64,000 bases of DNA from positions 113,150,001 through 113,214,000 of the forward strand of contig OX597823.1 of assembly GCA_951406725.2 (NCBI GenBank), in the 5' to 3' direction. Shown here in pieces: positions 59,909 to 60,335 of the stretch (position 1 is the stretch's first letter; the number at the start of each line of letters is the position of its first letter). The notes below the pieces were generated by a model. That model saw only the letters and a program-made list of their open reading frames with translations. It was not told the origin of the DNA and did not search any database. Made by a program: the position numbers and the translations under genes. The DNA is from Octopus vulgaris. Lineage: Eukaryota.

Positions 59909-60335
59909 CTAGTTGGAGATGCCTGTCTAGCCTTTGTAAACATATAAGAATTCGAGTGAAATAAATCCACTGATTACAAAAATCGAAATATTACGTTTCT
60001 AAATATTCATTTCACTAGAATTCTTATATGTTTACAAAGGCTAGACATGCATCTCCAACTAGCAAGCCATTCTACTCCAGACTGATGACAAGCAAAGACT
60101 CAGAAACTAGTCTCTGGATGCAGGCTTAGCTGGATGGGGGTGCTTGTCTCCCCTTTGTAAACATAAGGACACAGGAAATGTGTTAAGGCCGACAGAAAGC
60201 ATTGAGGCTTCCTTGGGCTAAATAGCAGTGGTGTGATTCCCTTCATGGGACTGTCACGTTAAGTTGACAGTATACTACTACTCTATCGTATCACTACTGC
60301 TTATATATATCTGAGATATTTAGAAATGTAATATT
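59909..60335 (+). mobile_element. ~350-nt retrozyme-like family A: inverted junction fragment (59909-60006) plus monomer (60009-60335)
   Basis: Homologous to 62994-63342 and 61094-61248; contains an HHR. Confidence 0.8.
60076..60118 (+). ncRNA. Minimal type I hammerhead (family A)
   Basis: tccaga CTGATGA caagcaaagactca GAA ACTAGT C tctgga; stem II is weakened in this copy. Confidence 0.7.

Follow-up and report, generated by a model that had tools for sequence, protein, structure and literature searches.

A 350-nt hammerhead-bearing repeat of Octopus vulgaris with an end-to-start joint, possibly copied from a tandem transcript by a PLE reverse transcriptase

Introduction

At positions 59909-60335 of a 64-kb window of Octopus vulgaris DNA (the window being the whole stretch of 64,000 nucleotides that was analyzed), an inverted and a forward piece of one repeat, here named family A, lie side by side, and within the inverted piece the end of the repeat is followed by its start. 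This arrangement raises the question of which template was copied into the locus, a circular RNA or a linear RNA in which units follow each other head to tail, and by what type of enzyme. The kind of element is already known: animal non-LTR retrozymes consist of 150-450-nt tandem units with type I hammerheads (PMC7229834), and retrozymes have been derived from terminal repeats of Penelope-like elements (PLEs; bioRxiv 10.64898/2026.07.22.740005), a link already argued in print for vertebrates. The repeat annotation of Octopus vulgaris describes recently active Penelope families, ribozymes being unmentioned in its main text (PMC13282606), and among the listed papers on coleoid cephalopods, none dealt with such a hammerhead family.

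Family A copies and the end-to-start joint

The following family A features were delineated in the window:

59909..60006, minus strand: inverted fragment, composed of the unit's last 20 nt (60006-59987), TC, and the unit's first 76 nt (59984-59909)
60005..60335, plus strand: forward copy without the unit's first 18 nt, ending at a (TC)n(TA)n microsatellite
62993..63342, plus strand: unit-length copy of 350 nt, which defines start and end of the unit and ends in (TA)n
61093-61248, plus strand: family A 3' part, from similarity comparison within the window
60027..60165, plus strand: long imperfect hairpin extending stem I around the hammerhead (arms 60027-60063 and 60129-60165, 81%)
60173..60335, plus strand: 3' module common to families A and B, from sequence comparison

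It had been proposed from the original prediction that the inverted fragment, when read on the minus strand, runs from the monomer end straight into the monomer start at 62994. The order is borne out, the 20 nt at 60006-59987 being identical to 60316-60335 at 19 of 20 positions (18 of 20 with respect to 63323-63342; at most 12 of 20 at the next-best site in either long family A copy) and being followed, from 59984 onward, by the start of the unit, with 80% identity to the 62993 copy over 71 nt. The passage is not direct, however, as two extra bases (TC, 59986-59985) separate unit end from unit start, and the start G is actually located at 62993. Likewise, the proposed monomer size of about 350 nt holds for 62993-63342, whereas the forward copy at 60005-60335, which is 90.0% identical to the 62993 copy over 311 nt, itself lacks the first 18 nt. 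The unit start is defined by one copy (62993) together with a 7-nt match to family B, whose local score of 14 does not by itself reach significance, and the three window copies of family A finish at one common motif. When up to three mismatches are allowed, the 20-mer of the joint is found four times in the 64-kb window, every time at a family copy, as compared to a mean of 0.22 in shuffled controls, of which none out of 100 reached four.

The inverted fragment is arranged head to head with the forward copy, their 5' ends meeting with a 2-nt overlap, and the two pieces form 58-nt arms (59909-59966 and 60005-60062, 38 nt apart) that are 95% complementary and differ at 3 of 58 positions. A match to MIR859 at 59909-60062 was rejected, as it merely represents the inverted repeat itself. 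No target-site duplication of more than 3 nt was seen at 60005-60335 upon inspection by eye. The joint is known from one locus, where it includes 20 nt of the upstream unit, and the 64-kb window contains no family A tandem array.

The unit is 350 nt in length with a GC content of 0.42 (41-42%). In agreement with its predicted non-coding nature, no stop-free frame wholly within 60005-60335 exceeds 52 aa, neither long copy has a frame that stays open from the hammerhead as far as the end of the unit, and the unit carries no tRNA head. Folding of the whole 60005 copy gave a z-score of -6.7, and that of the 62993 copy one of -2.2.

The family A hammerhead

60076..60118, plus strand: type I hammerhead of the forward copy, core 60082-60112, predicted cut after C60112 (sequence read directly, and motif scan)
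63084-63125, plus strand: type I hammerhead of the unit-length copy, predicted cut after 63119

The single hammerhead and its GUC site at 60112, as originally predicted, were thus recovered. Both long copies contain a 6-bp stem I, CUGAUGA, GAAA and a palindromic helix III (ACUAGU), and short palindromic helices III have been described as working in dimers (PMC4209133). A strict scan, demanding a stem I of at least 6 bp and a palindromic helix III, returned three hammerhead matches in the window as compared to one in 100 simulated 64-kb sequences. Rfam yielded no match in the window at the gathering score and no hammerhead family among the 48 matches obtained at E values up to 5 in 58500-64000; for the copy at 63090, the sole match was a weak one to RAGATH-1 (15.7 bits, E 1.3). 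Further CUGANGA..GAAA sites at 12430, 18320, 26614, 54670, 58684, 60495 and 60962 on the plus strand, and four on the minus strand, fail the strict scan.

A C.A mismatch closes helix II in both long window copies, and a second mismatch is present in the 60005-60335 copy only, the weak helix II of which thereby carries C.A and A.C mismatches at its base. Because of this damaged helix II, the 60005-60335 copy is probably a poor cutter. In contigs from public sequencing runs (see below), the consensus rows of loose ends begin helix II with either A or T, and an A-to-T variant is common at its last position (30 contigs in run X1 and 33 in run X6); such variants would give A-U or U-A pairs, the two positions being unphased.

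A neighboring repeat family shares the 3' module

60420..61443, plus strand: family B partial head-to-tail tandem, unit of 621 nt (60645-61265), without long ORF
about 61248-61266 and 60627-60645, plus strand: family B end-to-start joints
60791..60884, plus strand: family B type I hammerhead, predicted cut after 60878 (strict scan)

The family B hammerhead consists of a 6-bp stem I, a 4-bp helix II with a long loop, and a 12-nt palindromic helix III, and is matched by Rfam Hammerhead_1 with 19.9 bits (E 0.01), under the gathering score of 34. Its 3' module at 61093-61248 corresponds to the 3' 155 nt of family A (94% identity to the 62993 copy). The family B order is module end, AT-rich linker and then a GATTTTT start, which is the same end-then-GATTTTT order as in family A, the starts of the two families failing to align past 7 nt. 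Since family B is one such case, ORF-less tandem units of the 3' module do exist as DNA. The two family B joints have different sequences and different AT-rich linkers, the module being absent at the first joint, and the duplicated parts have diverged unequally (11 of 180 versus 3 of 208 positions, p=0.025); judged from these comparisons, unequal divergence and differing joints do not fit a single round of copying on one circle. The shared module at 60173..60335 likely holds the recognition and start signal for a reverse transcriptase.

Several minor features were noted in and around family B. A (TA)n run precedes its 5' end at 60420, and this end, located against the (TA)n, corresponds to a position 9 nt after the unit's predicted cut site (60879-60888), which may be chance. 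CUGAUGA and GAAA occur together with a palindromic hairpin a second time within family B (60495-60560 and 60962-61030); this arrangement fails the strict scan and is possibly a decayed or variant ribozyme. A possible third, degenerate hammerhead at 61455-61482 was rejected, considering that 740 of 5,000 random segments score equally well. Matches of 22-24 nt to family B at 18655-18678 (100%) and 7830-7851 (91%) are probably AT-rich chance matches or remnants.

Family A in public sequencing runs

Among the 24 runs listed, 20 contain part of the unit and none contains half of it or more, the best word share being 0.47; none of these 20 is registered as an RNA run. Using 62940-63380 as reference and a likeness of 80%, contigs were retrieved from the DNA runs X1 and X6 and from the presumed RNA runs X8 and X17, with 1,885, 3,267, 213 and 171 contigs, respectively, matching the reference. 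By these contig numbers, family A is a many-copy repeat. The summed depth of its hammerhead part is about 2,000 times single-locus depth, a figure which is not a copy number. In X1 as well as in X6, contig depth summed over the shared 3' module is 5-6 times that of the hammerhead part, an excess in line with several families using this module. Exact-pattern scans of metagenome contigs, viral contigs and prokaryote genomes returned no match.

Strand inversions account for 10 of the 12 joints listed and are scattered from 63033 to 63303; eight of these ten were found in the DNA runs, mostly at about single-locus depth, while numbers 9 and 16 of X17 have the head-to-head geometry, with 5' ends meeting as at 59909-60335. 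Loose ends cluster behind 63285 and 63293 (contig counts of 15, 23 and 21 for X1/X6) and are followed by TA-rich sequence in poor agreement (X1, X6 and X8), both observations being made among the 24 of 434 rows listed. This indicates that the family has another frequent 3' end, some 50 nt short of the one at which the window copies stop, the distal end being masked in the run comparison. The end-to-start joint is absent from the joints listed in the four runs, in which 63334-63380 was masked as repeat, so that one joint and 12 rows of loose ends are not included. Over its first 80 nt, the reference has a likeness of only 72-84% to the other copies, and the fall in depth towards 62993 was left unused as a sign of 5' truncation given this diverged start and the masked end. 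The 62993 copy is found at the same locus in contigs of X1 and X6, and is therefore not a fresh insertion.

In the presumed RNA runs, contigs cover 63030-63334, some of them bridging the cut site, and their depth profile follows that of the DNA runs (Spearman 0.98 for X8 and 0.91 for X17). Because these contigs carry no information on level, ends or strand, they are neutral with respect to a circular RNA.

Origin of the insertion

Directly seen are a 350-nt unit, its end-to-start joint, a hammerhead motif, an inverted piece head to head with the forward copy, flanking microsatellites, numerous copies and a second 3' end. From these the following reading was developed, which we hold tentatively and at a little short of an even chance: the locus represents inverted and forward pieces of the 350-nt repeat that were pasted in by a PLE reverse transcriptase, the joint having been copied from a linear head-to-tail transcript. 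Tandem master loci would be transcribed into RNA of more than unit length, to the shared 3' module of which a PLE protein made elsewhere would bind. This protein would nick AT-rich DNA and start cDNA synthesis at one of two fixed internal sites, and cDNAs primed from both target ends would meet head to head with a 2-nt overlap, one of them having continued for 20 nt beyond the start of the unit, and thus into the preceding one. With a palindromic helix III, hammerhead cutting would require dimers within the tandem RNA, and such cutting may give circles as a side product, which would be unnecessary to explain the DNA.

The insertion is read as PLE-made because inverted 5' copies, a tail and microsatellite targets are features of PLEs, for which inverted 5' copies, a 30-40-bp tail and a microsatellite bias have been described (PMC8557442; PMC3846280). 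At 59909-60335 an inverted 5' copy adjoins the forward copy, and the insertion sites are AT-rich or microsatellite DNA, with (TC)n(TA)n after 60335 and (TA)n after 63342, in a window that is microsatellite-rich throughout; the tail measures about 50 nt here versus the 30-40 bp reported. In experiments in vitro with a purified PLE protein from anole, both strands were cut and extended at AT-rich DNA, two internal initiation sites bound the tail, and uncut RNA is used, ribozyme cutting being dispensable for insertion (PMC11167929). The original prediction had proposed permuted versus fixed ends as one of its tests; given that the PLE enzyme starts at fixed internal sites and uses uncut RNA in vitro (PMC11167929), such ends do not decide between the templates. 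No RT or GIY-YIG domain (Pfam) was matched among 148 of the 332 window frames of at least 60 aa, low-complexity frames having been left out, and no PLE ORF adjoins the family A copies in the window. Points against this reading are, besides the missing PLE match, the longer tail and the lack of a family A tandem in the window, the confinement of the joint to one locus and the stop of the inverted fragment at unit position 76 rather than at one of the usual 3' ends, for which later deletion or off-site priming are candidates.

The 350-nt unit could instead be the terminal repeat (pLTR) of an autonomous PLE, running from the transcript 5' end to the first internal RT start site, in which case the joint would have formed during this insertion, by an enzyme that left the RNA at its 5' end and then jumped back to a start site, or by insertion beside an old copy. 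Such an origin would explain, without any tandem master, why the boundaries of a copy (62993 and 63342) coincide with those of the joint, and would fit the two extra bases at the family A joint and the different AT-rich linkers at those of family B; moreover, transcription of PLEs begins within the pLTR, pLTRs seem to arise through tandem insertion (PMC2377424), and most PLE hammerheads are single motifs of truncated PLEs (PMC4209133). We nevertheless consider a pLTR somewhat unlikely: the ORF of the anole PLE begins at its hammerhead and includes the initiation sites (PMC11167929), no such frame being present here, family B is a true tandem without ORF, and template jumping by PLE enzymes is not described in the PLE literature covered. 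The possibility of a jump also bears on the original claim that the template itself was joined, of which the joint in DNA stands and the step to the template is interpretative, since an RT jump gives the same DNA; the joint alone is accordingly no proof of a circular RNA. The proposed origin as cDNA of a retrozyme-sized circular RNA, in which hammerhead cutting and ligation would yield a 350-nt circle that a PLE RT copies past the joint, fares similarly: size, hammerhead, non-coding nature and reverse transcription are supported or likely, but the circle is not singled out, because a hammerhead-made circle presupposes a tandem precursor that already holds the same joint. The concatemeric alternative, also named in the original prediction, is the more economical one, as the circle requires this same tandem precursor plus two further steps. 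Size, low GC content and the type I hammerhead do match animal retrozymes, for which northern blots and RT-PCR have demonstrated circles in coral, mussel (350-390 nt) and axolotl (PMC7229834); compared to shuffles, folding of the unit is more favorable in circular (z -2.95) as well as in linear form (z -2.07), an intact cut site would be compatible with either cDNA piece, and fixed 3' ends are compatible with a circle if initiation is internal. A circular template is considered unlikely, however, in view of the lack of any run of identical units, the unequal duplicated parts and differing joints of family B, the mismatched helix II in both window copies, the lack of in vitro cutting for eight of nine frog retrozyme dimers (bioRxiv 10.64898/2026.07.22.740005), and the dispensability of cutting for PLE insertion in vitro noted above.

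It is very improbable that the 20-nt match arose by chance or through rearrangement of the DNA, or that it is an artefact of assembly at the inverted repeat. The piece is admittedly short and AT-rich, and the read comparison covered another locus (62940-63380), but the shuffled controls and the confinement of all four matches to family copies argue against chance, the 3 differences between the 58-nt arms are unlike a fold-back read artefact, and family B has the same end-to-start order. A bolder extension of the circular reading sees the 350- and 621-nt hammerhead units, built on one 155-nt PLE docking module, as a modular retrozyme set, with an abundant family A circle and the insertion as the footprint of a reverse transcriptase that went round it; this we regard as decidedly doubtful.

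Relationship to known elements

Family A is likely an ordinary new representative of a known kind, that of animal non-LTR retrozymes and PLE terminal repeats, and may already be catalogued in repeat libraries. Like animal non-LTR retrozymes (Cervera and de la Pena 2020, PMC7229834; Li, Clavereau and Pollet 2026, bioRxiv 10.64898/2026.07.22.740005), it has a non-coding unit of about 350 nt with a GC content below 45%, one type I hammerhead per unit, strong self-pairing, many dispersed monomers and end-to-start adjacency; in the latter study, monomer shares range from 0 to 1 and cutting occurred in one of nine dimers. Unlike for retrozymes, no family A array with two complete hammerheads was seen in the 64-kb window, self-cleavage and circles would be predictions from sequence, both window copies have a weak helix II, and the 3' module is common to a 621-nt unit bearing a different hammerhead.

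The pseudo-LTRs of endonuclease-bearing PLEs (Craig et al. 2021, PMC8557442; Arkhipova et al. 2013, PMC3846280; Cervera and de la Pena 2014, PMC4209133; Frangieh et al. 2024, PMC11167929) resemble family A in the head-to-head inverted 5' piece, in scattered 5' breakpoints, two clustered 3' ends and microsatellite insertion, and in a hammerhead whose palindromic helix III is small. Family A differs from them in that no RT/GIY-YIG ORF was found in the frames examined, the unit end joins the unit start rather than an ORF, the 3' ends are about 50 nt apart as opposed to 30-40, and no target-site duplication was seen. Non-autonomous passengers, head-to-tail insertions and similarity concentrated 3' are also known from Chlamys PLEs such as MRC1, a clade which, in contrast to family A, is described from green algae and without canonical hammerheads (PMC8557442).

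To this known kind, the current locus adds a retrozyme-sized unit bearing scars of PLE insertion, namely an inversion, two 3' ends and a microsatellite target. The short module shared by two hammerhead units constitutes the most useful lead and is a likely mobilization signal. If both a circle and a PLE partner were shown, a compact system would be available to test circular against linear tandem RNA templates for PLE enzymes.

Surroundings and other features of the window

The window is AT-rich, non-coding and loaded with microsatellites, and a 600-nt pyrimidine-rich stretch with strong strand skew (59290-59900) lies directly left of the insertion. All window pieces of families A and B are located within 3.5 kb (59909-63342), which suggests insertion near existing copies. 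A 105-aa frame at 54859-55176, for which no Pfam match was obtained at E 0.01, resembles what we take to be a decayed mariner-type transposase fragment.
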